A stretch of 64,000 nucleotides of DNA from a virus (IMGVR_UViG_3300043021_000113); one strand, 5' to 3'; counted from the stretch's first letter, positions 1 to 55,222 are shown. Notes: a model not told the origin generated them from the letters alone. Program-made: numbers and translations.

Positions 1-431
1 TTATACTTGAAATCTGCGGTATTAAGAAATACTTTAAGTCAATTTATAATATGGAAGGCCCAGAACGTGCAAGTATTGCAGAAGAAATGCAGGAAATCAT
101 GCACCAAGAAATGAAACATTGTCGCAAACTCGCAGATAGAATCTGCGAGCTAGGCGGCGAAGTTGATTGGGAGCATGACATGGTAGAAAAAATCCCATGT
201 CCTGAGAATAACTGTACTTATAAGCACTTAGAGTGCCACATGAAAATTGAAGAGCAATTAATGGATCTTTATTATGCGATCCTTGAATATACAGAAAACA
301 AAGACAACACGACTCATTATATAATTTCAAAAATTATGAATGACGAAGAGCGTCATTATGAAGAGCTAGAGAGTTTCAAAGAAGACATAGACCATATGAA
401 CAAACATGCTGCCGAACATTTAAAAAAGTAA
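1..431 (+). CDS. Ferritin-like / Dps-like (DPSL/bacterioferritin-type) diiron protein, probably 5'-truncated by the window edge
   Basis: Two ExxH motifs (QEMKH, DEERH) and LADRICELGG. The frame is open from base 3 (ILEICGIKKYFKSIYN) into M51, so the true start is likely upstream of the window. Confidence 0.8.
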   Translation, partial: ILEICGIKKYFKSIYNMEGPERASIAEEMQEIMHQEMKHCRKLADRICELGGEVDWEHDMVEKIPCPENNCTYKHLECHMKIEEQLMDLYYAILEYTENKDNTTHYIISKIMNDEERHYEELESFKEDIDHMNKHAAEHLKK

Positions 432-443
432 AACTTTTTAAAA

Positions 444-451
444 TATCTTTG
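444..451 (+). promoter_or_regulatory. Possible Bacteroidota -7 promoter element (TATCTTTG)
   Basis: Matches TAnnTTTG just upstream of ATG 458; no clean -33 TTTG. Confidence 0.35.
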
Positions 452-20032: not shown

Positions 20033-20356
20033 ATGAAAATCAAAAAATTTCAAATGGGCGGAGCTGTAGATCCTGCAATGGCTGGCGCCGAAATGGGCGC
20101 TGAAGCTGGAGCTGTAGCTGGTGCTGAAGCAGGAGCTGAAATGGGAGCAGAAGCTGGTGGTGATCCTATAATGGAACTTGTACAAATGGCAGCTGAAGCT
20201 TTACAAGCTCAAGATCCAAACATAGCTATGGCAGTATGCGAGGGCTTAATTGCTTTGGTGCAAGGTGGCGCACCTGCTCCCGGAGGTGAAGAGCCTGTAA
20301 TGATGCGTCGTGGTGGTAAAATGTGCGGAGCTAAGAAAAAAGCTAAAAAATGTTAA
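20033..20356 (+). CDS. Small Ala/Gly-rich putative virion protein with AGAE repeats
   Basis: 107 aa; MKIKKFQMGG N-terminus, (A/M)GA(E/V) repeats, basic C-terminus; followed by a terminator. Confidence 0.65.
   Translation: MKIKKFQMGGAVDPAMAGAEMGAEAGAVAGAEAGAEMGAEAGGDPIMELVQMAAEALQAQDPNIAMAVCEGLIALVQGGAPAPGGEEPVMMRRGGKMCGAKKKAKKC
20081..20160 (+). repeat. Degenerate 12-nt tandem repeat encoding (A/M)GA(E/V) x6
   Basis: GCTGGCGCCGAA/ATGGGCGCTGAA/GCTGGAGCTGTA/GCTGGTGCTGAA/GCAGGAGCTGAA/ATGGGAGCAGAA. Confidence 0.75.
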
Positions 20357-20364
20357 AACTTTTT

Positions 20365-20398
20365 AAAGGGAGGTATTTTCTAATATCTCCCTTTTTCT
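20365..20398 (+). terminator. Rho-independent terminator
   Basis: AAAGGGAGGTATT..AATATCTCCCTTTTT. Confidence 0.8.
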
Positions 20399-25425: not shown

Positions 25426-27332
25426 GAATTAAAAAGTTACAAACTGGAGGTATAGCGCCATATTCTGTTTATTCTCCAGCTCCAATAGCAGCTGCTTCAA
25501 CTCCTGGAGCAGCTGAAATGGAAGCTGCAACACCAACAGCAGAAGGAGCTTCTGGAGAATTGTTAGACGAAAAAATGATTAAACTTTTAATGGAAAATGG
25601 GATTCCATCGGATGTTGACAACTTTCTTGAAGAAGTAAACCAACTTCAAAAAATGATAGCAAGAGGTGGCCCTATAGATTCAACAAGCATTATGTATAGA
25701 AAAATTCTGCCTAAAATAAACAGGATTAAATATGACAACGACAGATTAAATGAAGTTACCAATCAACTTGTTTCTAATGGTGGATTAACAGAAGTTGCAA
25801 TGACAGATACAGGTTTAATCTTTGTTTCTGACGAAGAAGGAAACATTAAACCAGTAACAGTTAGCGAATACAAAGAAAATAGAGATAATTTAAGGGTAAT
25901 TTCTAATAATGAAATAAAAAGCATTAGAAGTCAAAGTCCTTCTGCAGCTTTTAACAATAACTATATAAGCGTAATGGCCAATGGCAAGGGACTTCCTGCT
26001 GTTACAGAAGAATTGTTAAAAGTTATAAATACAATGAAGGAAAATAAGGAATCAAAAGATAGTTTTATTCCTGGGTCTTCTCTTGCTGCACTTGAAGCTT
26101 TCGCTGATATTGAAAAAATGTCAAATGAACAACAAGCGCAATTATACAATGCACTTGGAATGGATAATGACGTAATGTTGAAAAAAACCACAGAATACAG
26201 TACTAATGTAAAAAATTATAAAAACGCGATTAATTATATACTTACAACATTACCTAAAAATTCTCTTACATTATTAAATACTAAAGCAGCGCAGACAGAC
26301 CAAACAGTTAGTCAAATAGTGTTAGATTTAATTATGACAGGCGAAAAGTCAAGTCAAGATATAAAATGGGAAATTAAAGAAAACCAAATTGAAAAAGCCA
26401 AGAATGATTCTAAAAATTCTTCTGGTGAAACTAATTTAACTTTCCAAAATGCTTTAGTAAATGATAGTTTTTCTGACCATGGTTTAAGTGACATTACATT
26501 TAGATTCTCACCTAAACATCAATTCAAAACTGCAGGAGCAATTATTCCTGGAAATGTTTTAGTTGATACAGACGGAAAACCTTTACCAGCTAATGCGTCT
26601 TTATCAACTGTTATGAGTGAAAGCTTAAGCTCTATTGCTTCAAATGATAATGTCTTTTTAGGTGATAAGAAAATAAACTTTAGTGATCTTGACCGTGTAA
26701 TGACAACTGGTAATAATCAAGCCAAAGTTTATATGCCATTAGATCAAGAAGCAATGATGAGAGGAGAAATTAAACCTGATTTAGAAATTGCACAAAGATT
26801 CGAAGAATTAGACAAAGAACGTAGAAATAACCATATAAAGAAAGGTTCTGCTGAAGAAAAAGCTTTATTTGATAAATACAACATGAGCGAATATTGGAAC
26901 GTCGATCCAACTGATCCAAGAGCTGCTGGTATATTTGCACCTTTTGTTGCACTTAATGTTATAGCACAAGGTGACGATTTAGTTTCTGATATGAACAAGT
27001 ATTTTATGGAAAAAGTCGAAGAATCAGACGAATTGGTAAATCAATTTAACATAGCTTATCATAAAGGAAAAACAGGCAAAGAATACGACAAAGGTTATAA
27101 ATCTTCTTTCTTTAAATTCTGGGAAGATGACGAGTTTTACAGAGGAACTGCTTTTATAGCAATAACTAATGATAAAACCGGTGCTTCTTTTGCTGGTAAG
27201 AGTAACAACTTATCAATTCCTAAATATGTAAAAGATGCAAACAGAGTGCGTCAAATGGAAGCTGACCAAATACACGAAAGAATAAATAAAGAGATAAACA
27301 ATAATAACAAAACAAGTTTACTGGATGAGTGA
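25422..27332 (+). CDS. Putative internal virion protein
   Basis: 636 aa; MRIKKLQTGG start; ATGA coupling to the upstream gene. Confidence 0.6.
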   Translation: MRIKKLQTGGIAPYSVYSPAPIAAASTPGAAEMEAATPTAEGASGELLDEKMIKLLMENGIPSDVDNFLEEVNQLQKMIARGGPIDSTSIMYRKILPKINRIKYDNDRLNEVTNQLVSNGGLTEVAMTDTGLIFVSDEEGNIKPVTVSEYKENRDNLRVISNNEIKSIRSQSPSAAFNNNYISVMANGKGLPAVTEELLKVINTMKENKESKDSFIPGSSLAALEAFADIEKMSNEQQAQLYNALGMDNDVMLKKTTEYSTNVKNYKNAINYILTTLPKNSLTLLNTKAAQTDQTVSQIVLDLIMTGEKSSQDIKWEIKENQIEKAKNDSKNSSGETNLTFQNALVNDSFSDHGLSDITFRFSPKHQFKTAGAIIPGNVLVDTDGKPLPANASLSTVMSESLSSIASNDNVFLGDKKINFSDLDRVMTTGNNQAKVYMPLDQEAMMRGEIKPDLEIAQRFEELDKERRNNHIKKGSAEEKALFDKYNMSEYWNVDPTDPRAAGIFAPFVALNVIAQGDDLVSDMNKYFMEKVEESDELVNQFNIAYHKGKTGKEYDKGYKSSFFKFWEDDEFYRGTAFIAITNDKTGASFAGKSNNLSIPKYVKDANRVRQMEADQIHERINKEINNNNKTSLLDE

Positions 27333-30300
27333 AAATGTAAAAGAAAATGACTGGATCGTAACATCCTTTACGTCATCAGACAGATCCCTTGATGAGTTGA
27401 GGGATTCGGGAATGAATGCCGAAAATACCCAACTAAAAAGTGCGGATTATTACAAAAACAAAAAATTTATAAAAGAAAATTTCGCTGATGATAAAGGCAA
27501 TTTTAATGAAGCGAAATTTGATAATTTTTATTCAGCAGCTGCTGAACGATACAATCAATTTGCAGCTGGTTTTTCAGATAAAGACGAGTTTTCAAAATTT
27601 CGTCTTATAGAGCAAGAGTATAATAACGCCATGCGTTATGGTGAGTCGACAAAATTTAAACAACACAAATTCGAAGTTGAAAAAGCAAGAAATCCTTTTC
27701 AAACATTAATTGGTGTTCAAGGAGTAGGAACAATTACTGAAAGCAATTTATCAACAGCTGAAATTGCGCAACAAGGAAGAGTAATTGATTATGAAACGGG
27801 AAAAACTCTTGATTGGTCAGCTAATGATAAAGGAGGATTTCTTAAAGGCTTAATAAGAGAACCATTAGTTCTTGCACAATGGGACGAAGACGGAGAACAT
27901 GAAGAAGACGGCAGAATGGTTCAACATAAAGCAGGTCAATTTAAATTAAACGAAGATGGCGAAATATGTTATGAAACATTAGGCAACCGTGACGCTTCAA
28001 GAAAGCATTTCTTGTCTTATTTTGATACAATAACGGTTGATGGTTCTTTTGCCAATAAATTTGACTTTTTAGATGCTGACGATAAAGAACAAAGCATAAA
28101 AGGAGCAATTGCAAGAGCTGCTTTAAAATATGCACCAGTAGCATTAGGAGCAATGGCAACTGGTGGTATTCTTCCTTTAATGTCTAATATATATTTAGGA
28201 GCAACAGCTGCTATTAGTTTAGCGGAAGCTTTACCTTCGCATATGAAAGCAATTGAAGGTATATTAGACGGTAAAGACTCAGGAATTGCTGATGTAGAAA
28301 ACAAGTCTGGAATCTGGAAAGCAATGAATAGACTTCAAGCTTACACAAAACCGTTTACTTTTGGAACTTCTGAGTTTTCACAAAAAGAAATGTTCACTTG
28401 GGAAAATATAATTAAAACCATAGGTGATGTTTCAATTCAACTTGGACAACAACAGTTAGTAGCTAAAATTCCACAATATTTAGGTTTAGATAAAAAAGCT
28501 CTTAAAGGTGTAACTGATGCTAGAGAAATAGCACAGAAACGAGCTAAGTTTGGTCAATTCCAAAGAGACCTTGGTTCTTTTTATATGACTTTAACTTCAA
28601 CTGCTGATGCTTACGGAGCAGCTAAAGATTATGGACATACAGACAGAATGGCAGGTTTAATTGCACTTGGAACACTGATAGGCACTCATAAAATCGTAAA
28701 ATCAGAAATTGGACAATATCCTTTAAGAGGCATTGGTCTTGATGAAACAAGTTTAGCTATGCGTCCTTCTATTCAAAGAATAGTTAGGGAAGTTTCAGAA
28801 AAAGCAGGAGAAGGTTTCAGCAAACAGACAAATAAACAAGTAATAAAAGATATTTACAAAAGAGTTTCTGGATTAGCTGGAAAAATAATGGAGAGTCCTA
28901 ATTCTTTAGCTGCTGCAGCTGCTAATGAAGCAATCGAAGAGTTAGGAGAAGAAATGGTAGCAGATTTCTTCCAAGCATTAGGTGCTGGAGCTTCTGCTCT
29001 TGGATTAACAAAAGAAGTTAATTATCAATACGACATAGGACAAGCTACCGATAGATATTTAATGGCAATGCTTGGTGGTGCGATTGGTGGTGGAATACAT
29101 AAACTCCGTTTTCCTTGGCAACAAACACACAAAGCACTTGATAGTTACGATTTAGCAGATCTAACTTATTTTTACGATGCGGACACTGTAAAGAAAATTA
29201 TTAGAAAAACAGAAATTCCAGGAAGTAAAACTCTTTCTGCTTCTAAGATAGATCTTAAGAGTAATTCGTTTTTAGATGCAGAAAACGAAGCAGACACACA
29301 ACAAAATTTTATTCGTGAAAGGCTCTGTGATGTAGTAGATGCTTACGAACATATATACAAAAACGTTGGAATTGAAAACTTTGATTTAGAAACTCGAAAA
29401 GCTCTTTTAAATGAAAGTGACCCAGTTTTAAAATCTTTGAAAGATTTTGGTTTAGAGAATAGAGTTGGAAATGATCTTGCAGATTATAACCACAAAATAA
29501 TTTCTCTTTGGTCTAAAAAAAGCGATGAAGAAGGAAACGAAGATTTAAACGCTAAATTAGACGAACAAATAAACCAGCTTATGGCCGAAAGAACAAATAT
29601 TACAAAAGGCCTTAAAGCTGACAATTACGTTCAGCAAACGATGCTTTATCTTGATAAACCGTTTGCTGAAATATTTATGACTGTTGATAAGAAAGATTTT
29701 GCAAGAAAAATGTTTAATGTGGATTATGACACATTAGGAGAATTGGACAAAGCCCTTATGGACAGTCGTTATGCAGATTATAACGGAGAAGCAGGAGGCA
29801 AAATAAGACAATATGAGTTCGCCGTAAAAATGATGGAAGAAGCGAACAAAAAGCTTGGAAAATACGCAGAGAAATACCCTAATTATAAGCCAATAAAAGA
29901 TAAAGTAAAAGAGGTTTTCAAAACAGAACTTGAAAATATGTATGGAAACCTTGAAACTTTAAATAATGGTCAACAACAAATAACATTTGGTCAAGTTGAT
30001 TTGATAGATGCTAACGGAGAACAAAACTTAACTGTAAGAAATGATATATTAACAAATAATGAAGGCATCTTTCAATTTTTAAACTTAGACATGCAAAATT
30101 TGGAGAATTCAAAATTAAAAATTCTTCAAACACTAAACGATCTCTCACAAGGAGGATTACCTATAGATGGAGAAATAATGGCAGAAATTAAACCTGTTTT
30201 GAATTTATATAGAGATAATCAATTAAAAAGGGTTAAATCTTTAAACTCTCCATTTTTAACATTAACAATGGATCCATCTTTTAAACCAATTCAAAGTTTA

Positions 30301-33300
30301 ACTGATCAAGGAATAAGAGATGCAGAAAAAGCCATTAAAGAATATACGGATAATTTATCAGGAGATGAAGATTTCATAACTGATCCAGAAGGTGTTTTTT
30401 CTACTTTACCAGTTGATGCGACAACTAAAGAGATTCAAAAGGCAGTTTATGATTATATGGTAAATTATCTTAATAAGATAACTGATCTTGACAAATCAAA
30501 TGCAAATTTTATTGAGAATTTACAGGTTGCAATTGAGAGTTCAGTTAAAAATCCAATTTATGAATATTTGGAAGATATAACAGGTCTTACCAATTCAAAC
30601 AATAATGGAATAATTGAGCTTTTAGCAGAAGAAAGCATAAAAGCTAAAGAATCAAAGCTTGATGATTATTTCTTAAACGATCCTGAAAAATACGATGCTA
30701 TAAAAAAGGATATTAAAATAGCAAGTGCACTTCTTGATAGCTTACAAGACAACGGGCGTGGATATTATCCAGTTTTAAATAAATTTAGAGAAAAATTCAA
30801 AACTGGTGATATAGTAAATCTTATTGAAGCAAACAATGCTCAAAGCATGAAACGAAATTTAAACGAACTTGAACAAAAAATAGATTTTTTCTATGGATTA
30901 AGTTTATATAATCAAGGAGACAGATTTAGAGAACAGAAAAATATTAAATTAAAATTCTTTGAATTATTCACTGGAGAATTAGACCCAGACGAAAATTCTT
31001 TAAGCATTTTGTCTAAAGCAAGAATATTTAAAGGTGTTGATCTATTAGATGGAGTGCCTCAACTCCACGAACAATTAGCCAATATAAACCAACAAATAAA
31101 AGTTGCTAAAGAAAGCGGACAATCAACAGATCAATTATCAATTAAGCAAGAAGCTTTATTAACTGAAATTGAGTCTTTGATTTACAATAATTTTACGAAA
31201 TTATCGGAAGAAGACAGGATAAGATATCTTGAATTTATATTAGACGAGAAAAACGGTATTATAAATCTTGATGAAGTAGCAAATCTTAGAACTTCCGATT
31301 TATCGTCTCGTGATGATAACACGTTAACAAACTATGATAAAGTCGTTTATTTAATAAGTGTTCTTTCGGCAGATGCAAAAGACTTTAAATTTTATTTAAG
31401 AGAAGCCTTAAATGAAAAAGACGGTGAAGGTAATTTAACTTATAATTACTCTCCAACTTTTGCTCAAGAATACCCAATTAAAATAGCTTATGCTGGAATA
31501 AAGAATAATTCTTTATTTAATAAATTTGTTGATGTTTTACAAAGTAAAAACACTTCTGCTAATACAGCCAGAAGTACAATTTTTATAGAAGGTTACCATG
31601 GGGTGGGTAAAACTTCCGCAACAGCTAATTTGTTAAATAAAATTATAAAATTAGATACTGGAAGCGATGTATTAGCTACTAGTATAAAAGAACGTCAATC
31701 AAGAAATATTGCCAATTCTCTTGGATTAACTGATTTTAAAACTAAAGATCAATTATGGAGTTTGATTTTTGGTGATACAAAAGTTGATGATTTAGTAAAT
31801 AAAGATGGAAGCATTAAAACAAGTGAGATTGATAAATTCGTTAATGATGAATTAGCAAACGTTGTTTTTATTGATGAAGTAACTTGGTACGATTCTCAAG
31901 AACTTTCCGTTTTGTCTAAATGGATTGAAAATACAGGAAGAAATTTAGTTGTTCTTGGTGATAGCTTACAAGAAGGAGCACCTAAAAATATTTCTGCAAT
32001 GAATGTTATTAAATCTCCAATTATTGAATATTCGATGCGTTCTGGATCGTTAGTTCAAAAGCACAATGCAGACACTGTTCGTGCTTTATCAAAAACTATG
32101 CATTATTTACAGGTTGGAGATGTAAGTTCGCAAATTAGAAATATTCTTGCAGAAGCTAAAAAATGGAATCAAGACATAGTTCTTAAAAATATACAAACAG
32201 AGAATTTGTTTAGGGGTTGTAAAATGGGTCAAACAGCCGATGATGTAAAAGCTTTTATTGATTTTTTAAAGAAAAATGGAACAGATATGAAATCTGTTGC
32301 TATTATATATGATGAAGAAAGCGATTATTTATTCGACCAAATAAAAGATTACAATCCGGATATTATAAAAATAAAACGTGATGAAGTTCAAGGTTCGGAA
32401 TTTGATTATGTAATTTGTACTAGTGACATAAAAAATCCAAGTACAGATTTAAGAGCTGATAATGGTTTAACTTCTGCACGTGAGTTTTTATCTTATACTA
32501 AGAAAATAAATACTCTTTTAAGTAGAGCTAAATTTGGAACGATATTTACAGGTAAAAATGATTTTACAGTTCAACAAGTAGAACGTGACACTAACCTTGT
32601 ATTTGATAAAGACAAATCCCAAGAATTCCGAGATGTTAGAATAAAAGCTCTTGATGAATCTTTAGGTGAATATAAACCAGAAAAAGCAGAAGTTAAAACT
32701 GAAGAAACAACAACTGAAGATAGAAAAGGAGAAGGCAAAGAAAGACTGCCTAATAAAACAGAACTTGAAGTTTCAAATGAATTGGGAGAAACTAAAGGAG
32801 TAACTCTTGATCAACCAATAGAAGCTCAAGAAAGGGGAGCTTGCACTTTTAACAAGAAAGCGCATGGTTACACTCAATTTTCAAACTTTGGTTTTAAGCA
32901 TAACATAACTTATGATGAAAACGGACAGCTTGTTTTAAATATTACCAAACAGCCGTCAAAATCTCAAATAAACAAGAAATTTTATCTTGACTTATCAAAT
33001 TATCTTGATAAAACAGTTTATACAGGAAACGAAGCAGAAACAATGCGTCTTAAAATGAAAGATTATGAAGCTAAAAGAAAATTTATAATCGATCAAATGA
33101 TAAACTCAGATATGAAACAATCTGAACTTGACGCGTTTTTAAAAGAACAAATAAAAGAAATTAAAGATTTAAAATTAGGAGATAGTTTTGACGGTGTTTA
33201 TGATGGCGTAGAAGTTCTTTTAACTGACAAAACAGATGCTGATTTAAATTGTGAAGCAGGAAGTCAAGATACAGTAAAAGTTGGTGATAAAATGATAAGG

Positions 33301-36015: not shown

Positions 36016-36016
36016 T

Positions 36017-42000: not shown

Positions 42001-42073
42001 TGGGTTTATTGAAGAACATTCAAACAGAGCTTATGTTCCAATTAAAAAGAATTGGATCGATGGAAGTGACTTT
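36017..42073 (+). CDS. Virion RNA polymerase exon 1; join(36017..42073,42365..45736) = 3142 aa
   Basis: GVRIPCQALQS..MKVVGF..NWIDGSDF motifs of the crAss two-barrel RNAP leading up to the catalytic loop. Confidence 0.85.
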
Positions 42074-42364
42074 TGTATAAATAAAAAATAATGGAAGTCG
42101 TAAAATCGCGTGAACTGCGGGAAACTCCTTAGAGCTTTTTTATACTAACTTATGGTAGAAATATACATAAGGGCTGAACTAATCACTCAGAGATAGTAAA
42201 AAGTAAAAAAGATTGGACAATCCGCAACCAAGCGTCCAGTAATGGATGAAGGCTCACAGACTATCCTTTTATGGAGTAGGGGCGAAAGCTTCGAAGTGCG
42301 CGACACTAATTAAAAATTAGTGATGATATAGTCGAGCTTTACGTGAAAACGTAGAGGGTAACTG
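42074..42364 (+). ncRNA. Group I intron 4 (291 nt, ORF-less) inside the RNAP catalytic motif
   Basis: P1 GACUUU/GAAGUC (U42073.G42094); P GAACTGCGGGAAA; Q CAATCCGCAACC; P7 C(A)GACUA/UAGUCG; terminal G42364; splice gives GSDF|DIDK. Confidence 0.9.
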
Positions 42365-45300: not shown

Positions 45301-45736
45301 GGATTATTCTTCGCATTTATCAAATAAAGGAGAAAGTGAATTTGAATGGGCGAATGAATCAAATTATAAAACTTATGTTTCAGATGATAAAGAAATAGTT
45401 TATAATTCAACAATAAATAGTACTTATTTAAATTTACTTCATGCTCAAAAAGTAGGAAAAGAATTTAAGCTTGATTTTAAATCTAATGGAGATTTTGTCA
45501 AGAAATGGAATAATACTTCAAAATCGTTTGATTTTTACCGATGGATAGGAACAGGAAATAATGGTGCTTATGAAAAAATAAAAAACCTTGGTTCTCTTAA
45601 AAATGCTCCTTCTTTTTTAACGGTTATTAAAAACGATTCAAACAACGTTATTAATAATTCAAGGAGTAGATCAATAGCTAAAGAGCTTCAAAGGGATATT
45701 GACAATAACAAAATAACATTAATTTTTAATTGTTAA
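42365..45736 (+). CDS. Virion RNA polymerase exon 2
   Basis: Frame open from GAT 42365 (DIDKIYLTGF...), in frame with ORF 42416; GKDCIGISA and STDNAKELIL motifs. Confidence 0.85.
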   Translation, partial: DIDKIYLTGFNASKNGIMDVHTSWFDYRFMDQSFQLPFADGKEKKVAERPIAHNFSEQQFLNFQRYLEMNEVLTPEEYQDFVDIMNFISEYEIIPNELKAFEGDINDYFMDSSTEGEKLTEATKNIVSYYLHDISNSVVNSMASDTPVTSDTTAAVASKSEKARDAKLFSMDNYMTLPAMKQANSYGKDCIGISAVGLKCFNTLSFMYSKKMSNLEKELIQKGITPDARVEDLDQELVNQIWHDLNIKKVNLGKRDYNKLTRLKDRAGVLTNEAINKELKNFFTGLEINGDDIVSINNVNYRLNIVDGYKYLSPLYENAKSIDLSKRNDDLSAIVEEAALFIELLNQTGVNPAELALSKIEEETGVSNFIRTQAINIADYTGDQNLLIEKYKLSSAIINANLVANVNFTNTPILNNIYGQFVKNNNIIDVRLTADKSLDMSELVTISTDNAKELILEKINASPALIGVYSYLTSIGLPLDVIADYMISKEVNTIASLAESNVFTGDNMNVDKAIAKITGIPYYRNYLKGWEAIKLLRGPKKSNSKTSMLYRALEAYKKHRSTSIQDAKIATSIQNNLGDYEKVKLGQLFSEFNKLGPNALKALADVIKDDYPKLDSKIKHGMKRYENAIRESVSYKEDLDMDFINAFAELYLGADELKLFGSRLNINQGMKTTAFELISGYNRYNNTVARFAKKRDLDLMELSSKVNLDGSQFDISNIYTGKQTKELTDLYDALKIHHNIVEAEIMSPSFSSMHLAKDSAVNILRNSSAKFKALELMYKTFGQYANEDNFKDLMDFLNKDITNLYLSNLDLDYNVKKDSEIYKDEDDKKIKTERDSVISIKSKNGVVNFKILMEKRLQDLKKLYPENQFLSNIGYDSIADKLTRAEYTIMKPNNLNMNSILSDTDIYRYSQMVNGFKELTSIKSDFIDGMNISDEFMLYNLIINNNGYSKSSFSRFFDEAIDSDSENIISDYMRFVGNLDYSSHLSNKGESEFEWANESNYKTYVSDDKEIVYNSTINSTYLNLLHAQKVGKEFKLDFKSNGDFVKKWNNTSKSFDFYRWIGTGNNGAYEKIKNLGSLKNAPSFLTVIKNDSNNVINNSRSRSIAKELQRDIDNNKITLIFNC

Positions 45737-48700
45737 TGGCAAATTGTGAAATAATAATGATGGCTGGTGGAGATGTAACAGCTGTCATTTCACCAGAAGA
45801 AAACACCGGAAATTTGACCCCAAGAACATTCTTGGGGCAAATTGTAGGTGATAAAGTGATTCAAGATAAATACGAATCAATAAGAAACAATATGAATAAC
45901 AGAGCCGTTGATTTGTCAGTGGTTCTAAATAATGAGAGAGCAACACTTATGGGTTATTCTCCATTAAGTTTTGATAGAAAATATGGAAGAATATTTCCAA
46001 CAGATATAAGAGAAATGTTAAATGTAATTTCTAATACAGAAAATGGAAAGAAATTAAAAATAGCATTTGCTCCTAAGTTTAAAATGAATGGCCAGTCAAC
46101 AGCTGGTGTTTATATGCATACAAAAGATTTAATAATTGTTGCTGATTCGGAAAGTAAAGCTTCAACTATTAATTCTTTAAGACATGAATTGGTTCATTAT
46201 TTATACGATAACGTTTTAGAAATTGGACTTAATAATAGAAACAATCCTGACTTAACAGAAGGAGACAAAATAAGTGTTCAAATTTTCAATGATCTTTTAA
46301 GTGTACATCAAGATTTATTAACAAAACTTCCAGAAATTGAACGCTTGTCAAGTTCAACTGGTACTGAATATATGTCTAGACTTTCAAATATCCTTAAAAA
46401 CTATAAAGATTTTAAAAATATTAATGATGTAAAAGAATTTGCAGCTTATATGTTGGAAGATCTAAGAGTTGTTAATTGGATAAGAGAAAATTTAGATAAT
46501 AAATTAGCAGATGCTTTCGATACATTCGCTGGAGCTTCTGGTATAAAATCTGGAATTGTTAAATATGAAGCCCACGCTTCAATTGAAAGCTCGATTAAAG
46601 AATTAAGAAATAAACACAAATTATTTAATGTTAAACCTTACACTGGCCCAATAAATAATTTTAACTATATAGGTTGGGGTTCTTATTTTGAAGGAGAAAT
46701 AAACAATACTCCAGGACGCTTTATATATGAAACAGCAGGACTTGTTAGATCAATAGATACTAACGAGTATTTTGATATAACACAAAGAGCAAAAGATATT
46801 TCAAAGTCAATGCCTATTGAAACAGCAGCAAGAATGCTTGCTGATATGAACGAAAATTTAAATAAAAACAAAATAGCAATTATTACATTAGAAGACTACG
46901 TAAACGATGCTGAATATTCCAACTTGTATGGAGCATTTACACAAGTAGGAAATACACCAATAACTATTAATTTAGAACAAGGAAAAGCTATTTTATCAAG
47001 AAATGAAGATGGAGTAGTTGTTCTTGGTTTTGAGAACCATCCTGCACTTGGTAATATGCAAAACATCTCAACTGATGACTTTTTAACACATGCTATAAAA
47101 GTTGGTGATAGTTTAATAGCTAAAGATCAAAGCGAAGCAAGAAATGAAGATTTAGAAGTTGACGGAAGCGATGCTGACCCTGAAACATTTGAAAGAAACA
47201 CGGGGATGTCTTTTAGGCTTTTAAATAATGATGTAAAAATTGATAAATCGGACAAGTTAGGTAGATTTTGGAGTAAAGAGAAAAACGAGAATAAAAAAGC
47301 AGAAAAAAACGCTGTTGAATTTTACAATTACTTTTTAGAAAGAAAAGATAATCAATTTCAATATTGGTCCCGCTTAAAACCTATTAACAATGACTTTCAA
47401 ATGAGACAAGTTTCTTCTGGAGATTTGATATTGTGTAATCCTATTGCTTACATGTCAGTTGATGAAGCGCATTCTTTAGGCTTTAAATATAACAAAGGTG
47501 TTATTTTACAACAATTCATCGATGAAACAAACAATTTATCTGATGATAACAAATACAAAAAAGCTCGTTTAGCTTGGGCTAAAAAGCAAGAAGAATTCAA
47601 AAGTTACGATACTAATTACATATCTAATGGTTCTTTTTATGATGCTAACGAAGGCAAATGGTATGCTTACATAATGTACCCATTCGGTAAAGGAGGAGAA
47701 AAAGGAGTTGCAGCTTTAAGAGTAAATCTAGAGAGTAAATATGTAAAAGGTTTTAAAAGCCTTGGTAGTGAATATAAGATGATTTATGACAGAAACGGTG
47801 ATCTTATAGAAAAAGACACTTATAGTCGATTAAATCTTGATGGAATGAGTGAAGGTGAAATTGAATTAGTAAATACTGTTGTAAATAATCTTAACTCTGA
47901 AGGTGTAAAATTATATGAAAACCAAACAACAATAAAAATGGATGATGACGACACGGACATTCAACTTTCGGAAGATGAAAACATTTTTAGTGTTAGAATT
48001 TCTGGATTTGCAGGAGATGAAGCCGTAATAAATATGGCTGATCAAGCAAGCGTTGGTGACGTGATCGTTTTTAATAAATGGGTAAAAGGTAAGAAAAAAC
48101 CAGTTCAACAATACGCTGTTAAAATTCAAAACTCAGAAGGCGGAATTGTAGCAAAAACAACTGATGGTGACATTGTAATTGTAAACCCAGAAATGATAAC
48201 TAGGGTTTATTTACACGCTAACAATGACCATAAATTACTTGATGAACTAAACCAAACAGAAGCAGCTTTTGCTTCTGGATATGATAATATACAAAGTGGA
48301 GACAATTTATATAGTATCTTTCCTTTCTTTAACCATGATCAAGCAGTAGATAAAGAAGGCAATTTAGTTTATGAAACAAGAAAGGATAAAAACGGCAATG
48401 AAGAATTCAAGCTTGATGATAACGGAAATCAAATTCCAGTTTTAGCTAAGAATCGCCAAAACATGGCTAATAATTTAAAACGTGGTGATATAATAAAAGT
48501 TCAATATGTAAGCGATGGTAAAATTAGAGATTCTTTATTTGAATTTCAATTTGCAACATCAACTAGGGCTTATTATAAAACTAGGGATGTTTACGATGAT
48601 AACGGAAAATTAATTAAAAAAGGATTTTTAAACCACGTTTCAATTAATCAATATTCGGACGCTAAATGGAAAAAGGATGACAATGGCAATTGGTATAATA

Positions 48701-50751
48701 TAGGAGATCCTTCAACTTATAAGCCAGAAATTATTGCTGCTTATTCTTTAGGATCAAAAGCTGATGGTGTCCTTTATGATTACGTACAAGAAAGAAAAGC
48801 TTTTCAAAGTGAACTTTTCAATCAAAAGAAAAGAATTAAGAAAGATGTTGCCACTGAGTCAATGGAAGATGCTTTATTAGCTCTTGCTGGTCAAGAAGAA
48901 ACAATAAACATGACAATTGATAGCAACGGAGAAGTTGAAATTTTCCAACATGAAAACGGTTTAGATCAAGAATGGAATATGGAAAGCTTGGATGGTTTAA
49001 AATATGAAGAAAAACTCGATGCTTTATGTGATCTTTCAAGAGGTGACTTAGTAGAAGTTAATTTTGAAAAAGACGGAGAAGCTAGAAAATACTTAGCGGT
49101 TTTTAAAGGTTATTCTAAAGATGGAGACATTAAGGTTATTTATAGAAAAAAAGACGGTAATAACACCGCTTTTGACGATATAGTACAACCTACGAATATT
49201 TCAAGAGTTGGTAAAAGAATAAAACCTTTGGTTTATTATCAAAGAGAAAATGAAAATGGAGAACGTATGACTTATTATTCTAGTTTAACGGAACAAGAAG
49301 TAAAATCACGTTTTGATGATATAAAAGTAATTCATACATTAGCAGATGGTCACACGGCAGATCTTAAATTTTTAAAAGATCGTTTAAATTGGCTTTATGA
49401 TTCAGGGAAAAAATCTGCTCAATTTACAGAAGCTCAAAAAAGAAAATTTGAAAATAAACATCCTGATTTAATGGATTATTTAAAGAAAAGAGGAATTTTT
49501 GTTAAAAACGCAGAATTTGCAAAGTTCTTTGTTTATAAAGATAACTCAGGAAATGTAAAATATAAAATGGAAGAATCCGAAATTGACGGATTCAAGCTTA
49601 CTGATGAAGTAAAATATTATATAAAGGTTGAAAGATACTTTAAAAATAAAAAAGGAGAAAGTGCAGTTAATGCTTTATCTGCTCTTGAATTACAAGAAGA
49701 CGAAAGAGGGCGTGGTTATACAAAACAATTTGGACTTGATAATGAAAGCTTCAATGATATTTTAAAGGTAACTGATATTGGAGATGCTATACAAGTTTAT
49801 TTTCCAAGTAAGGATAATCCAGACAAAAACGAATATAGAACAGGAATTGTTACCAAAAAAACAAATTCTATGATGTCTGTTGCTTATATTGTTAAATCAA
49901 ATGATGATACATTTTATCCTTGTAGTATTAACCTTTATGGGAATAAATATGATGACGGCAGTTTAAGGGTAAAAGAACTTTACACAATGTATCGTAAAGA
50001 AAAGCAAGAAGCGTTTTCAAATATGAAACGTAATATTAAGCAATCAAAAGAAACTGAAATTATTAAAAAGTCCCATGATTCAAAAGAAGCTGTAAGTTTA
50101 ATTACAAGAAACCTTAAAAATATATATAATGCTAATGTTGAGGTAATGAGTAATGAGCAAATGGTAAAAATGGGTTCTGATAGAGGAATAAACTTAGAAG
50201 GCACGAGAGCTTGCGTTATTGATGGCAAAATATATATAAATATTGATAGAGCCTCAACAGCTGATGTTTTACATGAATTTACGCATATATTACTTCCTGG
50301 TTTGAAAGCAAGAAATCCTGAAGCTTACGAAGCCATATTATCTAAAGTTCAAGAACACCCAGCTTTTGAACAGGTAAAAGCAGAATATAAAAATTTAAAT
50401 GATGCAGATTTGGCAGAAGAAACTTTTTGTACTATCTTTGGAGAATATTTCAGAAAACAATTAATGTCAAAAGATGAACAAGCATGGTTTGATGGAAACT
50501 TTATGGATATTGCAAGTTCAGTTGCTGATGTTGTCAAAGATGTTGTACAAGTTGATTTTGATTTTATAAGTTCTTATGACTTAATGAACATGTCTCTTGA
50601 TGAAATAATGGATCAATTCGGTTCTGATTTGATAACTGGAAAGTTTGACAGGGTTTATGAAATAGGTTATCAAATAGAGTCAAATAATAATGATGTTTCC
50701 AGGGTTTATCAAAGCCTGATTGATTTTGGAGATTTATTAATAATATGTTAA
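45736..50751 (+). CDS. Giant protein with two zincin HExxH motifs and repeated GD-x-hydrophobic beta modules
   Basis: LRHELVHY and VLHEFTHI..LAEE; ATG 45736 overlaps the upstream TAA (TAATG). Confidence 0.7.
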   Translation: MANCEIIMMAGGDVTAVISPEENTGNLTPRTFLGQIVGDKVIQDKYESIRNNMNNRAVDLSVVLNNERATLMGYSPLSFDRKYGRIFPTDIREMLNVISNTENGKKLKIAFAPKFKMNGQSTAGVYMHTKDLIIVADSESKASTINSLRHELVHYLYDNVLEIGLNNRNNPDLTEGDKISVQIFNDLLSVHQDLLTKLPEIERLSSSTGTEYMSRLSNILKNYKDFKNINDVKEFAAYMLEDLRVVNWIRENLDNKLADAFDTFAGASGIKSGIVKYEAHASIESSIKELRNKHKLFNVKPYTGPINNFNYIGWGSYFEGEINNTPGRFIYETAGLVRSIDTNEYFDITQRAKDISKSMPIETAARMLADMNENLNKNKIAIITLEDYVNDAEYSNLYGAFTQVGNTPITINLEQGKAILSRNEDGVVVLGFENHPALGNMQNISTDDFLTHAIKVGDSLIAKDQSEARNEDLEVDGSDADPETFERNTGMSFRLLNNDVKIDKSDKLGRFWSKEKNENKKAEKNAVEFYNYFLERKDNQFQYWSRLKPINNDFQMRQVSSGDLILCNPIAYMSVDEAHSLGFKYNKGVILQQFIDETNNLSDDNKYKKARLAWAKKQEEFKSYDTNYISNGSFYDANEGKWYAYIMYPFGKGGEKGVAALRVNLESKYVKGFKSLGSEYKMIYDRNGDLIEKDTYSRLNLDGMSEGEIELVNTVVNNLNSEGVKLYENQTTIKMDDDDTDIQLSEDENIFSVRISGFAGDEAVINMADQASVGDVIVFNKWVKGKKKPVQQYAVKIQNSEGGIVAKTTDGDIVIVNPEMITRVYLHANNDHKLLDELNQTEAAFASGYDNIQSGDNLYSIFPFFNHDQAVDKEGNLVYETRKDKNGNEEFKLDDNGNQIPVLAKNRQNMANNLKRGDIIKVQYVSDGKIRDSLFEFQFATSTRAYYKTRDVYDDNGKLIKKGFLNHVSINQYSDAKWKKDDNGNWYNIGDPSTYKPEIIAAYSLGSKADGVLYDYVQERKAFQSELFNQKKRIKKDVATESMEDALLALAGQEETINMTIDSNGEVEIFQHENGLDQEWNMESLDGLKYEEKLDALCDLSRGDLVEVNFEKDGEARKYLAVFKGYSKDGDIKVIYRKKDGNNTAFDDIVQPTNISRVGKRIKPLVYYQRENENGERMTYYSSLTEQEVKSRFDDIKVIHTLADGHTADLKFLKDRLNWLYDSGKKSAQFTEAQKRKFENKHPDLMDYLKKRGIFVKNAEFAKFFVYKDNSGNVKYKMEESEIDGFKLTDEVKYYIKVERYFKNKKGESAVNALSALELQEDERGRGYTKQFGLDNESFNDILKVTDIGDAIQVYFPSKDNPDKNEYRTGIVTKKTNSMMSVAYIVKSNDDTFYPCSINLYGNKYDDGSLRVKELYTMYRKEKQEAFSNMKRNIKQSKETEIIKKSHDSKEAVSLITRNLKNIYNANVEVMSNEQMVKMGSDRGINLEGTRACVIDGKIYINIDRASTADVLHEFTHILLPGLKARNPEAYEAILSKVQEHPAFEQVKAEYKNLNDADLAEETFCTIFGEYFRKQLMSKDEQAWFDGNFMDIASSVADVVKDVVQVDFDFISSYDLMNMSLDEIMDQFGSDLITGKFDRVYEIGYQIESNNNDVSRVYQSLIDFGDLLIIC

Positions 50752-50752
50752 A

Positions 50753-53700
50753 ATGTCTTGTGATAAATACGTTTTAAATTTAGAAAAAGGCCCAATAACT
50801 TTTGAGTCTAAGGAAGAACTTTCCCGATTTATAATGGACAATCGGGAAAGGCTTCAAAGAATAAAGAAAGATAATGGAATACATTTAAGCAAAGAGTTTC
50901 GAAAACAAGCTGAAGTTTTAGCTAAGCTTAAAAACATAAGTGATGCAATAAAACTTGATGAAAACAAATTTGATGAAAAAGAACTTGACCGTAAAGTTTC
51001 AAAAAGAGGTTATATATCTGTAACAAAAGCTATTACAAAAGAAGATTTAGGAGAAAAAGGAGTTCCTTTTGTAACTGGTTTTAATTTTGAAAATTATAAA
51101 AAGGTTGTTACTAAAAAGTTAGTAGAAGAGGGAGCAGATAAAACAAAAGTAGAAGAACACATCGAAAATTTAAAATATCAATGGGCTTTATTAGCTAAAT
51201 TTGGAACATCTTTCCATAAATACGCAGAGTTATTTTTTAGTTCTGATGATTCTTTCCAAGCAAGAAAGGATTTTATGGATTATGTAAAGAAAAAAGGCTT
51301 AGGTCTTGATGTTGTCGATATTTCAAACATGGGTGATTTACTAAGTAATGTTAAAAGAGCTTTATTACAACGATACGGAGAAAATGCACAATTTATTCCT
51401 GAGTTTAAAATAACTTCTAATAATAAAGAAGGAGAAAATTTCGTTGGAGTTATTGACTTATTAGTAATTACAGAAAACGGAGATGTTCACATTTGCGACT
51501 TTAAAACTTCTCCAAAAACCCATGATGAAGCAGACCAAGCAAAACAGCTTACTTATTCTTACCAGTTAGGCTTTTATCGTCAAATGTTAGCACAGCGTGG
51601 AATTTATATGGCACCAGCTGATCTTAACATTATTCCTGTAAGACTAGTTAATGTTGATTATCAAAAACAATCTTACGAAATAAACAGTACTTTTGGAGAA
51701 AGAGACATTGACACAAGAAACAGCGCTTCTGCTAATACTAGTTACGCAAAAAGCATTTATGAACAGTTAGCTTTGGCTAATGGTAAAATTACAAAAAGAG
51801 TTGAAGGTTTAATGCCTAATACTACAATATCCTTTAAAATGGACACATCAATTGCCGATAAACTAGACGGTGCTTATAAAACACTTTTTGGCTTTGATGG
51901 TTTAAATTCTAAAGGAGTAAATAGAAAATACACCTTGGATTATATAAAGAAAACTATTAAACAAGGAACAAATGGTAAATATGGAGTAAGAAATACTCAA
52001 ACAAACAAGACTGAGTATTACAATACCCGTGAAGAAGCAGAAAAGAAAGCTATTGAAATTTACAATGCTAACATGGAAAATCCGATTTCTTATGCGTTGG
52101 AGTTTTCCAGAAAATATAATGCAGCTTTAAAATCAAAAAAGAAAAGATTTGAATTTTCGGATGTAGCACAAGCTGAACGTTACAATAAGCTTTTTGGAAC
52201 TTATTTAGCTAATGAATACACCATTAATGAAGAATTATTAGATTTTGGAATAATTGTTTTTCAAAACGACATTTACAAAACAATTGATTTCTTCACGATA
52301 ACTGGTAATATTATAAAATTAAACAATAAGAGCTTTAAATATAAAGACAATGGAGCCAAAATTACTGGTAATTTAGTTCCTGATTCGGTAGTAAATGCAG
52401 ATGTTTTAGAAGCTGTAAACGGAAACGTTGATCTTATGAAAACAATGTTAGTTATTAATGAATTTCTAGCAAATAATGATGGAGAATATAAGGTTAATGG
52501 ATTAAAAGTCTATTGTGCACATAATGGACAATCTGCGGTTCAAATGAACAATGTTCTAAGAGAAAATTTCAGGCAACTTTTAATGTATGCAAGAAAGAAA
52601 AATCCGGATTTTAAACTTACAAATAACTTTGAAAATGGAAAAATTGAAATGGTTGATCCAATAGTTAAAGTTATAAACAAAATCGATGAAATAAGAAAAA
52701 TTGATGATAAAGTAAATCCTGATCTTTTAAATAAAGTTGAAAATAGATTAAAAGCAGTTAATAATTCTCCAAGAGATCAAAAAATACAATTATTGCATGA
52801 ATTATCAAATGAAGTAACAAATGATTTAATAGGTTACGGTGGAACTTTAATTGATCCTTTACATATTGACAACATGGCTTCTATGCTTTATGGTATGATT
52901 TATGAAGCAATGGCTGAAGAAGGAGGAATTTTAGCACAAATTGAATATAACGATACCCCAAAATATGCTTCTTTTAATTCTCAAATGTACACTTCTAACC
53001 AACAAACAAACAATAGAATTGTAAATGAATTTGAAATTAAAGTATTATCTAAATATAGAAACGACTTAAAAGAACATTTAACTTCTGAGTTAACACCAAT
53101 TGAAAAAGTTTGTTCTAATTATTTAATAAAACAAGGAAAAATTGATTCTTCTTTCAATGCTTTTAAATCTCTTGTTATTATGCAAGATGGAGACACTCCA
53201 ATTTTAAGAGTTCTTAATCCAGACACAGCAAATATAACACAAGAAGAAAAAGACTTTTTAAATTACTTTTTAAGAAAGATTAATGCTATAAGATATCCAA
53301 TTACTAAAGGAGACAAGAACAGCGAAGAAGCCAAACAATATATAGCAACTGGTGAATGGTTCGATATTCCTTTAATGGAAGCTGGTTTATTTTCTAAAAC
53401 AGCAAATGCTGGAGTAAAAGGATTTAAAAAGTGGATTAGCGATAAATGGGAACTTATGAAAAATCCTAACTCACTTTTTGAAACAAACAAAATTGAGAAA
53501 ATAGACGAAGAAAAAAATAAATTCTTAAAATATGTTAATAGTATGAAAATGAAGCGGGAAGACCGCGACAATTTTATTAGAAGCAGAGGTGTTGATTGGT
53601 TCTCAATAAATCTTGCAGAAGTATTAGCAGAATATACATATAAAAACATAGTTGAAGAAGAAACAAACAAAGTTCTTCCTTGGATTAGAACTTCAATTAT

Positions 53701-55222
53701 TCTTCAACATTGGTCAGCTTTAATGACTAACTCAGAAGTCAAAGAAGCTTGCGAAGTTTCAATGAAAAAATATCAATCGGACGTTTACAATGTTAATCAA
53801 ATATCAAAAGGAGAAGAACCAATTTATGGTGCATTTCAAGTTATAGATAACTTAATAAGCACAATGACCATTCCTTTTAACCCAAAAATGTTTGCACGAG
53901 AACTTATGACTGGACGATATAATAATTATTTAAGAACAGTCACTAAGTTTGGAGGTAGTTTATCTCCAAGTGTTCAAAATCTAACTAAAGCTTATGGATT
54001 CGTTGATCTTTACGCTGTTAAAGCATTAAGCGGAAATCAAAACAAGCTTTTTTATATGAATAAAAAATGGAATATTGGTGGTCGTGCAATGCGAGAAATG
54101 TTAGAATCACACAGAGCCAATACAGGAGAAGTTGCAAATATACTTGGAAGATCTGCTCCTAGTTATATATTAGCACAAATGACAGATTATGAACACCGAA
54201 TGGCTTTATTTTCTGCTTTTATGATGGAAGATGGAAGTTTTGATGCTTACGTTGAAGATAACGACAACAAAACTCTTGTTTATGATTTTAGCAAAGACAA
54301 ACGTTTTGATTTTATCAAAGAATGTGCAAAAACAGGAAAAGTTCCTGAAGGAAGAGCTAGAGATTTAGCAAAATATAATATGCTTTTAGCAGAATTTAAC
54401 GAACATCTACCAGATGATAAAAAATTAAAATTTGGAGATGATTTACCAGAAGGACTAACAGAAAAACAAATTTCAACATTTTTGAATATATCTAACCAGA
54501 TACACGGAAACATGGATGCAGACACACAGATGTTCTGGAAGCGTTATTTAGTGGGAAAAGTGTTTACTAAATTTCAAACGCACGTTTCAGCTAAAGCTAC
54601 AAACTTATTTTTAAAACCGGGTAAATATCAACGTTACGAAGAAATTTACATGGACGATCCAAACACTGGTCAACCATTATGGGTTAAAGTATCCAAAGAT
54701 CCTGAAACTGGAGAGTTTATAACCACTTATACCACAGATTATAACGACCCTGATTGTATAAAACAACGTGCAATTAAACTTGACATTGTAGGTGAAGCTG
54801 GGACTTTTTATGCTCTTAAGGATGCTTTCAAGCTGCTTTCTTCTGAAAATAGAGCTGAAGACTGGGAAACATTAAAAAATGATGAAGCAAAAATGCGTGG
54901 TTTACGTTTCTTGGTTTCTGATTTATTCTGTTTTCTTACTATGGGCTTATTTGCTAGTCTTGCTGGTTTAAAAGCTATGAGAAAAGAAGATAGGTTCAAG
55001 TATGATATTATGAAAGAAATGTTGGTTACTCCAACAACTGAAAATAACCCATTATTACTTGCAATGGGTGTTATTAATACCATAAATGCTCCAATAACGA
55101 GTATCTCTAAGAAATGGGCAACAAATACAATGGACTTTATAACAAGTGAGAATTATCAACTAAAAAATTATGTTTATAATACTTACGGATTCGGTAAGTT
55201 TGTTGGACCATTTCTTAATTAA
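50753..55222 (+). CDS. Giant protein with N-terminal PD-(D/E)xK nuclease domain
   Basis: 1489 aa; GTSFHKYAE, IPEF, GVIDLL, ICDFKT, YSYQLGFY; C-terminal hydrophobic segment. Confidence 0.75.
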   Translation: MSCDKYVLNLEKGPITFESKEELSRFIMDNRERLQRIKKDNGIHLSKEFRKQAEVLAKLKNISDAIKLDENKFDEKELDRKVSKRGYISVTKAITKEDLGEKGVPFVTGFNFENYKKVVTKKLVEEGADKTKVEEHIENLKYQWALLAKFGTSFHKYAELFFSSDDSFQARKDFMDYVKKKGLGLDVVDISNMGDLLSNVKRALLQRYGENAQFIPEFKITSNNKEGENFVGVIDLLVITENGDVHICDFKTSPKTHDEADQAKQLTYSYQLGFYRQMLAQRGIYMAPADLNIIPVRLVNVDYQKQSYEINSTFGERDIDTRNSASANTSYAKSIYEQLALANGKITKRVEGLMPNTTISFKMDTSIADKLDGAYKTLFGFDGLNSKGVNRKYTLDYIKKTIKQGTNGKYGVRNTQTNKTEYYNTREEAEKKAIEIYNANMENPISYALEFSRKYNAALKSKKKRFEFSDVAQAERYNKLFGTYLANEYTINEELLDFGIIVFQNDIYKTIDFFTITGNIIKLNNKSFKYKDNGAKITGNLVPDSVVNADVLEAVNGNVDLMKTMLVINEFLANNDGEYKVNGLKVYCAHNGQSAVQMNNVLRENFRQLLMYARKKNPDFKLTNNFENGKIEMVDPIVKVINKIDEIRKIDDKVNPDLLNKVENRLKAVNNSPRDQKIQLLHELSNEVTNDLIGYGGTLIDPLHIDNMASMLYGMIYEAMAEEGGILAQIEYNDTPKYASFNSQMYTSNQQTNNRIVNEFEIKVLSKYRNDLKEHLTSELTPIEKVCSNYLIKQGKIDSSFNAFKSLVIMQDGDTPILRVLNPDTANITQEEKDFLNYFLRKINAIRYPITKGDKNSEEAKQYIATGEWFDIPLMEAGLFSKTANAGVKGFKKWISDKWELMKNPNSLFETNKIEKIDEEKNKFLKYVNSMKMKREDRDNFIRSRGVDWFSINLAEVLAEYTYKNIVEEETNKVLPWIRTSIILQHWSALMTNSEVKEACEVSMKKYQSDVYNVNQISKGEEPIYGAFQVIDNLISTMTIPFNPKMFARELMTGRYNNYLRTVTKFGGSLSPSVQNLTKAYGFVDLYAVKALSGNQNKLFYMNKKWNIGGRAMREMLESHRANTGEVANILGRSAPSYILAQMTDYEHRMALFSAFMMEDGSFDAYVEDNDNKTLVYDFSKDKRFDFIKECAKTGKVPEGRARDLAKYNMLLAEFNEHLPDDKKLKFGDDLPEGLTEKQISTFLNISNQIHGNMDADTQMFWKRYLVGKVFTKFQTHVSAKATNLFLKPGKYQRYEEIYMDDPNTGQPLWVKVSKDPETGEFITTYTTDYNDPDCIKQRAIKLDIVGEAGTFYALKDAFKLLSSENRAEDWETLKNDEAKMRGLRFLVSDLFCFLTMGLFASLAGLKAMRKEDRFKYDIMKEMLVTPTTENNPLLLAMGVINTINAPITSISKKWATNTMDFITSENYQLKNYVYNTYGFGKFVGPFLN

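Follow-up and report, generated by a model that had tools for sequence, protein, structure and literature searches.

Among the phages of the human gut, Crassvirales are the most abundant, and ~1 MDa of protein, the polymerase that starts infection included, has to pass through their narrow tail. In the cultured phage phi14:2, the cargo proteins gp078, gp077 and gp076 (gp67, gp66 and gp65 of Drobysheva et al., gp66 being the crystallised virion RNA polymerase) are structural by tandem mass spectrometry (MS/MS; GenBank record note), and the polymerase is reported to enter the host along with the DNA (PMC7886860). In crAss001, gp47, gp49 and gp50 are virion cargo that needs partial unfolding to pass constrictions of <50 Å; the sequence in which they leave has been ascribed, as probable and without further detail, to packing and to contacts among them, and the virion holds several inter-subunit disulfides (PMC10172136). 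The three cargo proteins are fused in some phages (bioRxiv 10.1101/2020.03.07.982082), and the ejected proteins of N4-like phages (Schitoviridae; N4 gp50-52, DEV gp71-73) are essentially free of cysteine (Cys), which has been explained by envelope crossing (PMC11445570). Here we analyse a block of four giant proteins at 27325-55222 of a 64,000-nucleotide stretch of DNA from the uncultured virus IMGVR_UViG_3300043021_000113 (the window), in which every protein but the last ends in Cys and every protein but the first carries Cys near its start, a pattern that recurs in relatives and suggests disulfide links between successive proteins. Judged by homology and synteny, the block probably encodes cargo that is packed into the virion of this phage and injected into the host. 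Its features, with the four proteins numbered as members of a chain, are as follows.

27325..36015, plus strand: chain member 1, a superfamily 1 (SF1)-helicase-like P-loop protein of 2896 amino acids (aa), starting MSENVKENDW and ending KLKELC
36017..42073, plus strand: chain member 2, exon 1, a virion-type RNA polymerase, starting MICEG, with Cys3 at 36023-36025
42074..42364, plus strand: group I intron (Rfam RF00028) that interrupts the RNA polymerase within its DFDID catalytic motif; the frame is restored on its removal
42365..45736, plus strand: chain member 2, exon 2, the C-terminal part of the RNA polymerase, ending ITLIFNC, with the Cys codon at 45731-45733
45736..50751, plus strand: chain member 3, a zincin-domain protein of 1671 aa, with a MANC start (Cys4, 45745-45747) and a DLLIIC end (Cys, 50746-50748)
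50753..55222, plus strand: chain member 4, the last, a PD-(D/E)XK nuclease-domain protein of 1489 aa, starting MSC (Cys3, 50759-50761) and ending GPFLN

Direct translation bore out the first-pass annotation of this DNA, which had placed Cys at the last residue of proteins 1-3 and at residue 3-4 of proteins 2-4 and had described the free ends of the series (the MSENVK start and the GPFLN end) as lacking it: the helicase-like protein ends in Cys (codon 36010-36012) and has no N-terminal Cys, and the nuclease-domain protein has no C-terminal Cys. The pattern had further been said to be complete only once the polymerase intron is spliced out, and this also proved right. The RF00028 match at 42030-42355 scores 67.2 bits against a gathering score of 50, and taking out 42074-42364 leaves a single open frame of 3142 aa that carries Cys3 and, as its last residue, Cys3142, and that reads GSDFDIDK, with the DFDxD catalytic motif of two-barrel RNA polymerases, at the joint. 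The genes are tightly packed, with gaps of -1 to +1 nucleotides (nt) at the three junctions (the polymerase open reading frame (ORF) starts at 36017, 1 base beyond the helicase-like ORF), and TGT stands directly before the stop codon in all three.

Residues 1412-1745 of the helicase-like protein match Pfam AAA_30 at 30.8 bits (cut-off 27), with weaker matches to AAA_19 and AAA_12 below cut-off, and the nuclease-domain protein matches PF12705 at 40.6 bits. Pfam gave no match on the 1671-aa zincin-like protein, the C-terminal domain of which carries an HExxH motif that is near-invariant, also across 17 syntenic homologues; in an alignment of the C-termini from 18 lineages (A5), H72, E73 and H76 hardly vary, and only the terminal Cys forms a fully invariant column. 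AlphaFold2 confidently predicted the fold of residues 10-135 of a 230-aa C-terminal piece of this protein, and a Foldseek search of the zincin-domain model against the PDB returned nothing significant, the top rows being zincin proteases at E ~0.25. Syntenic homologues of the helicase-like protein likewise end in Cys, and they start MSKEIKPNDW or MAKNDW. As a separate observation, a (K/E)NDW(I/L)V motif is kept at the N-terminus of the first chain member (window 27325-27360; L002 1788-; L003 1015-) across lineages that are otherwise little alike, and it could mark the leading end of a thread or serve as a packaging signal.

Scarcity of Cys in the giant proteins had been remarked on beforehand, and it is pronounced: Cys makes up 35 of the 9186 residues of the cargo proteins (0.38%) versus 1.37% in the other 109 ORFs of the 112-kb genome, a 3.6-fold depletion. 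Those 109 ORFs have Cys at residues 2-8 in 10 cases and in the last six residues in 8, as composition predicts; the KELC end of a ThyX-like product, which the first-pass annotation had allowed to be a coincidence, belongs to this background. At the cargo Cys frequency, three junctions with Cys on both sides would arise by chance with a probability of ~2 × 10^-10, even with lenient windows (last six residues, residues 2-8).

Because the helicase-like and zincin proteins diverge too fast, we used the polymerase for finding relatives; with the C-terminal 400 aa of the helicase-like protein as query, no matches came from INPHARED or IMG/VR, and a word-based search with the whole zincin protein was equally empty. 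Sixteen polymerase homologues at 25-32% identity (2000-3500 aa, E down to 10^-232) nearly all begin M-x(1-4)-C, and the full-length members of this set end C or C-x. When 1.84 billion representatives were searched exhaustively and without a profile, 308 matches (E up to 0.001) were obtained, of which the best 150 were used together with the 16 earlier homologues. Among these, Cys occurs in the last five residues of 129 of the 146 polymerases of at least 550 aa, where 1.5% would be expected, and its position is narrowly set (-1 in 53, -2 in 58 and -3 in 14, with almost none deeper); at the other end, 27 of the 29 full-length homologues have Cys at residue 3-6. One of the two exceptions had a mis-called start. 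In P0007, which seemed to lack the N-terminal Cys, the start had been mis-called, and the first ATG of the ORF gives MSC.

The polymerase core, with its invariant TDNAKEL motif (alignment A2), was used to retrieve 80 IMG/VR loci of 20 kb each, to which two Logan contigs were added. Alignment A1, of the polymerase C-termini, varied too much to serve as the seed for finding loci; it had also been chosen for Cys, and its invariant column was therefore not used as evidence. ORFs were called under the genetic code that each locus needs (44 standard, 20 with TAG as Gln and 18 with TGA as Trp). The contigs carrying the relatives' polymerase range from ~13 to 193 kb, many exceeding 100 kb. Only two INPHARED records match the polymerase core, so that deposited phage genomes include hardly any representative of the clade. 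Clustering over the most conserved 400 residues gave 27 clusters and, at <60% identity to one another, 26 lineages, the truncated L005 being a close relative of the window.

With one representative per lineage, 74 junctions between adjacent large ORFs could be tallied, and both Cys (last six residues upstream, residues 2-8 downstream) are present at 67 of them, against 0.03% expected per junction. Near misses account for another five (Cys at -9 or at residues 9-11), and the remaining two both concern the junction that precedes chain member 1, where head-to-tail linkage predicts no pair. Counted over in-chain boundaries, 67 of 72 follow the terminal-Cys rule and the other 5 are the near misses, an outcome in line with the first-pass annotation, which had proposed beforehand that conservation of the pairs be checked in relatives. 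The free ends behave as in the window: none of the 21 complete last proteins has Cys in its final ten residues, and an N-terminal Cys is absent from every complete first protein looked at (~10 genomes). Terminal positions account for 142 of all 473 Cys in these proteins (~30%), and five polymerases of 3021-3492 aa (L010, L039, L040, L077 and L084) contain exactly two Cys, one per end.

Alignments of termini that were unselected for Cys (A3-A6; mean column identity 23-29%) have the terminal Cys and the start Met as their only invariant columns; in A6, the N-termini of the nuclease protein, Cys3 is the sole invariant column besides the start Met. Junction gaps vary from -11 to +38 nt across lineages, as do the position and codon of the Cys. 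The ratio of TGT to TGC among the relatives is 114:21 at terminal sites versus 239:64 at internal ones, and since both codons occur at terminal sites, no single codon or DNA motif accounts for the pattern. On these counts the terminal-Cys pattern is not a product of chance.

The rule extends to cultured and named Crassvirales (phi14:2, crAss001, DAC15, crAss002, crAssphage and Suoliviridae), in which we refer to the terminal Cys as the C-tag or N-tag of a protein. In phi14:2, gp078 (1797 aa) has a sole Cys as its last residue, the RNA polymerase gp077 (2180 aa) has two (Cys3 and Cys2179), and gp076 (1421 aa) has Cys3 as its sole Cys; the three virion proteins thus hold four Cys in 5,398 residues, every one at facing termini. 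In crAss001, the only Cys of gp47 (2341 aa) is at -3, gp50 opens with MSKRC and carries a Cys at -9, and gp49 (1349 aa) has Cys5 only; DAC15 shows the same terminal-Cys behaviour, and crAss002 gp32 and DAC15 gp078 contain the tag Cys only. In a single-Cys protein an internal disulfide is impossible. In both crAss001 and DAC15, the gene of the first protein and that of its partner lie on opposite strands, and such convergent pairs still keep the rule, which therefore cannot be a gene-junction signal and acts on the protein, not the DNA. Between the window polymerase and crAss001 gp50 a weak collinear match covers, among other parts, the DFDxD motif region, and the window proteins barely match crAss001.

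Gene fusions and splits shift the tags in step with the protein boundaries. The polymerase is fused to the third protein in crAssphage ZA, crAss002 and cr271_1, which leaves a two-member chain with one pair (SFSCM, SFVCS or KISCM at the end of the first protein, then MSC) and a fusion protein without a C-terminal tag. In Suoliviridae cr50_1, cr4_1 and cr1_1, the first protein is instead fused to the polymerase, and one pair stands at the sole remaining boundary; cr124_1 shows the same single pair, with its first protein running off the start of the record and its N-terminus unseen. That the pairs should vanish where genes are fused had been anticipated, and the estimated joints agree: the crAssphage ZA fusion is Cys-free over residues 2241-3126, around the joint, and the cr50_1 joint also has no Cys. 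Protein order in the fused forms examined is the order implied by the tags. Conversely, the polymerase of L015 is split into two overlapping genes (2534 and 835 aa; L015 2200-12304) with new ends EENCNG and MDKGC; the split lies ~70 residues before the TDNAKEL motif, not at the intron site, and by its gene structure the L015 polymerase is a natural two-piece enzyme. In L080 the block contains an extra protein of 333 aa, without detectable homologue, that bears both tags. Whether a chain has 2, 3, 4 or 5 members, its boundaries bear tags.

ORF fragments made by the DFDID intron, by comparison, never show a pair. In the window the fragment ends have none, the Cys of the SDFCINKK end being intron-encoded. 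The polymerase ORF is disrupted at DFDxD or close to it by an insertion of ~0.2-1.1 kb that is present in some and absent from other members of clusters of at least 60% identity (L017 vs L018, L038 vs L037, L054 vs L053, L064 vs L057); the corresponding insert in the window is the group I intron, and the gap in L007 holds an extra 363-aa ORF. An apparent polymerase-zincin fusion in L067 was discarded as an artefact of reading TAG as Gln, the standard code giving two separate tagged proteins. As to gene starts, the annotated start of crAss002 gp33 (L087 11948-12050) lies upstream of an ATG at codon 33 that gives MSC, and that of the crAssphage ZA fusion (L086 10032-10100) is non-ATG and upstream of an ATG that gives MSC, which suggests that the MSC start is the real one for both proteins.

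The tags have a recognizable anatomy. The Cys lies in the final 1-6 residues or at residues 3-8, and MA and MS are the commonest N-terminal leaders, which would make Cys the second residue once Met is removed. Downstream of the N-tag Cys, hydrophobic residues alternate at +2, +4 and +6, followed by a Gly/Asn turn at +7/+8; the C-tag Cys is the last residue in half of cases, with a residue at -4 that is often hydrophobic and residues at -1/-2 that are often polar or acidic. Where the zincin protein meets the last protein, the flanks are conserved (G-x-[LI]-[KI]-E-x-C, then M-x-C-x-Y-x-L), which hints at cognate docking. The idea that the tags adjoin docking modules, raised in the first-pass annotation, received modest support overall: on the 18-lineage alignment, AlphaFold2 placed a beta-hairpin (residues 6-10 and 13-17) and a helix directly after Cys3 of the nuclease protein, at a pLDDT of 70-87, and the helix and short tail that it placed before the last Cys of the zincin protein were of low confidence. 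A complex prediction that paired the C-terminal 150 aa of the polymerase with the N-terminal 150 aa of the zincin protein, run with alignments and without controls, gave a score of 0.04 (mark 0.32) and was taken as evidence neither for binding nor against it.

Given a conserved lone Cys at each of two facing termini and depletion of Cys elsewhere, a disulfide pair is the simplest explanation, and we consider it reasonably likely that redox-cleavable disulfides tie the cargo proteins head to tail. Since the ejected proteins of N4-like phages are essentially Cys-free, the Cys retained in crAss-like cargo needs a positive reason. We infer the disulfide chemistry, the ends that pair, the timing of bond formation and breakage and the role in ejection from the sequences. 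In this scheme the C-terminal Cys of each protein would be disulfide-bonded to the N-terminal Cys of the next, giving a linear, unbranched thread of ~9,200 residues (~1 MDa) that would be the covalent equivalent of the gene fusions in other crAss-like phages. With links at the extreme termini, an unfolded thread could pass the narrow portal and tail channel, which is 25-50 Å wide (PMC10172136), and fewer internal Cys would mean fewer wrong links. The link would fix a 1:1 stoichiometry and the order of exit, and the reducing cytoplasm of the host would cut the thread into free enzymes. More tentatively, and with rather less conviction, we propose that the cargo as a whole could act as a redox-cleavable polyprotein formed after translation, in which up to five giant enzymes would be held in a ~1-MDa thread at fixed stoichiometry, be pulled unfolded and in order through the tail and be released by host thiol reduction, among them the RNA polymerase that starts the infection.

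Several points weigh against this scheme. Virions assemble in a reducing cytoplasm and many of these phages live in the anoxic gut, which leaves the timing and the means of oxidation unexplained. No thioredoxin, glutaredoxin or Erv1-type oxidase was found in the 112 kb (a genome 63% complete), the Erv1 search also being blank in control genomes. The chain proteins of the window each retain 5-11 internal Cys, which makes wrong pairings possible, and the modules adjoining the tags are predicted with moderate or low confidence only. Pairing in gene order is read from the pattern, and other matchings of the three C-tags with the three N-tags are possible. Inter-protein disulfides in the cargo are proposed from sequence, the cargo being unresolved in the crAss001 map (PMC10172136), and phi14:2 gp66 was purified and crystallised in dithiothreitol (DTT) (bioRxiv 10.1101/2020.03.07.982082). 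A related arrangement, in which each protein would close head to tail on itself, was ruled out, as the end members and many others have only one Cys.

The alternative that survives best, although we regard it as unlikely, is that the tag Cys act at the protein level in some other way, by forming homotypic dimers or polymers, by tethering the cargo to a Cys of the capsid, portal or scaffold, or by bridging termini through a metal. What the data show so far is conserved single Cys at particular termini, and the many structural disulfides of crAss001 virions could supply partners (PMC10172136). However, none of these roles predicts the asymmetry between the first protein, tagged at its C-terminus alone, and the last, tagged at its N-terminus alone (a C-terminal Cys occurs in 0 of 21 last proteins), the appearance of one C-tag and one N-tag at the L015 split, or the Cys-free fusion joints. 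For a metal bridge in particular, E, N or D often occupy -1/-2 by the C-terminal Cys and could aid binding, but a normal zinc site needs more ligands than one Cys per terminus provides, and the neighbouring residues include neither a conserved His nor a second conserved Cys.

Acyl-transfer chemistry of an intein-like or native-chemical-ligation-like kind, which would produce a polyprotein joined by peptide or thioester bonds, or autoproteolytic processing, is in our estimation highly improbable. A near-N-terminal Cys (the second residue after Met removal in MA-C and MS-C) facing a C-terminal Cys does recall ligation chemistry, 16 of 67 terminal Cys, that of the FNC end in the window among them, follow an Asn, and fused versions have been suggested to be cleaved (bioRxiv 10.1101/2020.03.07.982082). 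However, the N-terminal Cys is not the first residue, the residue preceding Cys varies (N, E, D, K, I or T), and the Cys position varies as well (-1 to -6 at one end, residues 3-8 at the other), which leaves no fixed catalytic geometry. Among the five ORF products Pfam recognized no intein or HINT domain, and neither a HINT half at each terminus nor a conserved (H)N before a +1 Cys, as in split inteins, was found.

Chance, a composition effect or a DNA-level junction signal such as a translational-coupling motif (TGT TAA ... ATG ... TGT) carries next to no weight: the tight junctions of the window, with TGT before each stop, and the Cys ends of ThyX and of a 107-aa protein are what it would have in its favour, but non-cargo ORFs of the same genome have terminal Cys merely at the composition rate and the pattern persists over 26 distant lineages, with gaps of -11 to +38 nt, both Cys codons, variable positions, three genetic codes and partner genes on opposite strands, and we therefore rejected the chance and translational-coupling explanations, which the comparative tallies and the opposite-strand pairs contradict.

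Two large proteins precede the chain.

20428-25425, plus strand: first large upstream protein, 1665 aa
25422-27332, plus strand: second large upstream protein, 636 aa

Neither contains any Cys (0 of 2301 residues in total, against an expectation of ~31 at 1.37%), and on this analysis they may be Cys-free ejection or channel proteins. Syntenic homologues of the 636-aa protein likewise have 0-1 Cys and a similar LL(D/N)x end motif. The 107-aa protein (window 20033-20356) starts MKIKKFQMGG, which resembles the MRIKKLQTGG start of the 636-aa protein (25422-25451), and ends AKKKAKKC; it breaks the pair rule, as the product of the next gene lacks a Cys near its start, and a terminal Cys of this kind is no more than chance allows among non-cargo ORFs. 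The sequence TAAAACTTTTTAAA occurs at window 425-445 and 20351-20371, both times after the stop codons of unrelated genes, and may be a terminator or promoter motif.

Literature searches returned no description of a terminal-Cys link between cargo proteins, as the first-pass annotation had supposed, and Cys or disulfides of the cargo proteins go unmentioned in the crAss001 structure paper (PMC10172136), the phi14:2 polymerase preprint (bioRxiv 10.1101/2020.03.07.982082), the 2021 analysis of crAss-like genomes and a 2023 Crassvirales review. If true, the covalent tether proposed here would offer a concrete mechanism for order, stoichiometry and release, and would explain both the differing combinations of gene fusions among lineages and the avoidance of Cys except at the ends. 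To our knowledge, a covalent cargo train is not known from any phage or secretion system, and this one, if real, would be interchangeable in evolution with gene fusion. The terminal-Cys rule is also an aid to annotation, as it marks protein boundaries and starts amid introns, recoded stops and mis-called starts (crAss002 gp33, crAssphage ZA and P0007).

The window block resembles the RNA-polymerase cargo blocks of other Crassvirales (gp078-gp077-gp076 of phi14:2 and gp47-gp50-gp49 of crAss001) in its giant proteins encoded beside the tail genes, its DFDxD polymerase and its zincin domain. Unlike those blocks, it has four chain members and not three, with a PD-(D/E)XK protein added at the end, its polymerase gene is broken by a group I intron, and the phage is very distant. 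The N4-like phages likewise have giant virion RNA polymerases with companion ejection proteins, which cross the envelope unfolded and are strongly depleted of Cys (PMC11445570); in the window, Cys makes up 0 of 2301 residues in the upstream pair and is depleted 3.6-fold in the four chain proteins, which keep 5-11 internal Cys each. However, N4-like proteins are simply Cys-free, whereas the window cargo keeps one Cys at each facing terminus, the reverse of suppression at these positions. The proposed disulfide thread would be like the inter-subunit disulfides of crAss001 (in the portal-vertex gp57 dimer, the tail hub and the ring proteins) in linking separate polypeptides through Cys-Cys bonds (PMC10172136). 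Unlike those links, which lie within folded domains of fixed assemblies, the proposed ones would join mobile cargo end to end. In AB-type translocated toxins, an interchain disulfide is held during the unfolded passage of a chain through a channel, and the reducing cytosol then frees the chain. The thread would work like these toxins in principle, as a functional analogy with no homology; but whereas an AB-type toxin links two chains from one precursor through internal Cys, the thread would link up to five separately encoded proteins through their extreme termini.

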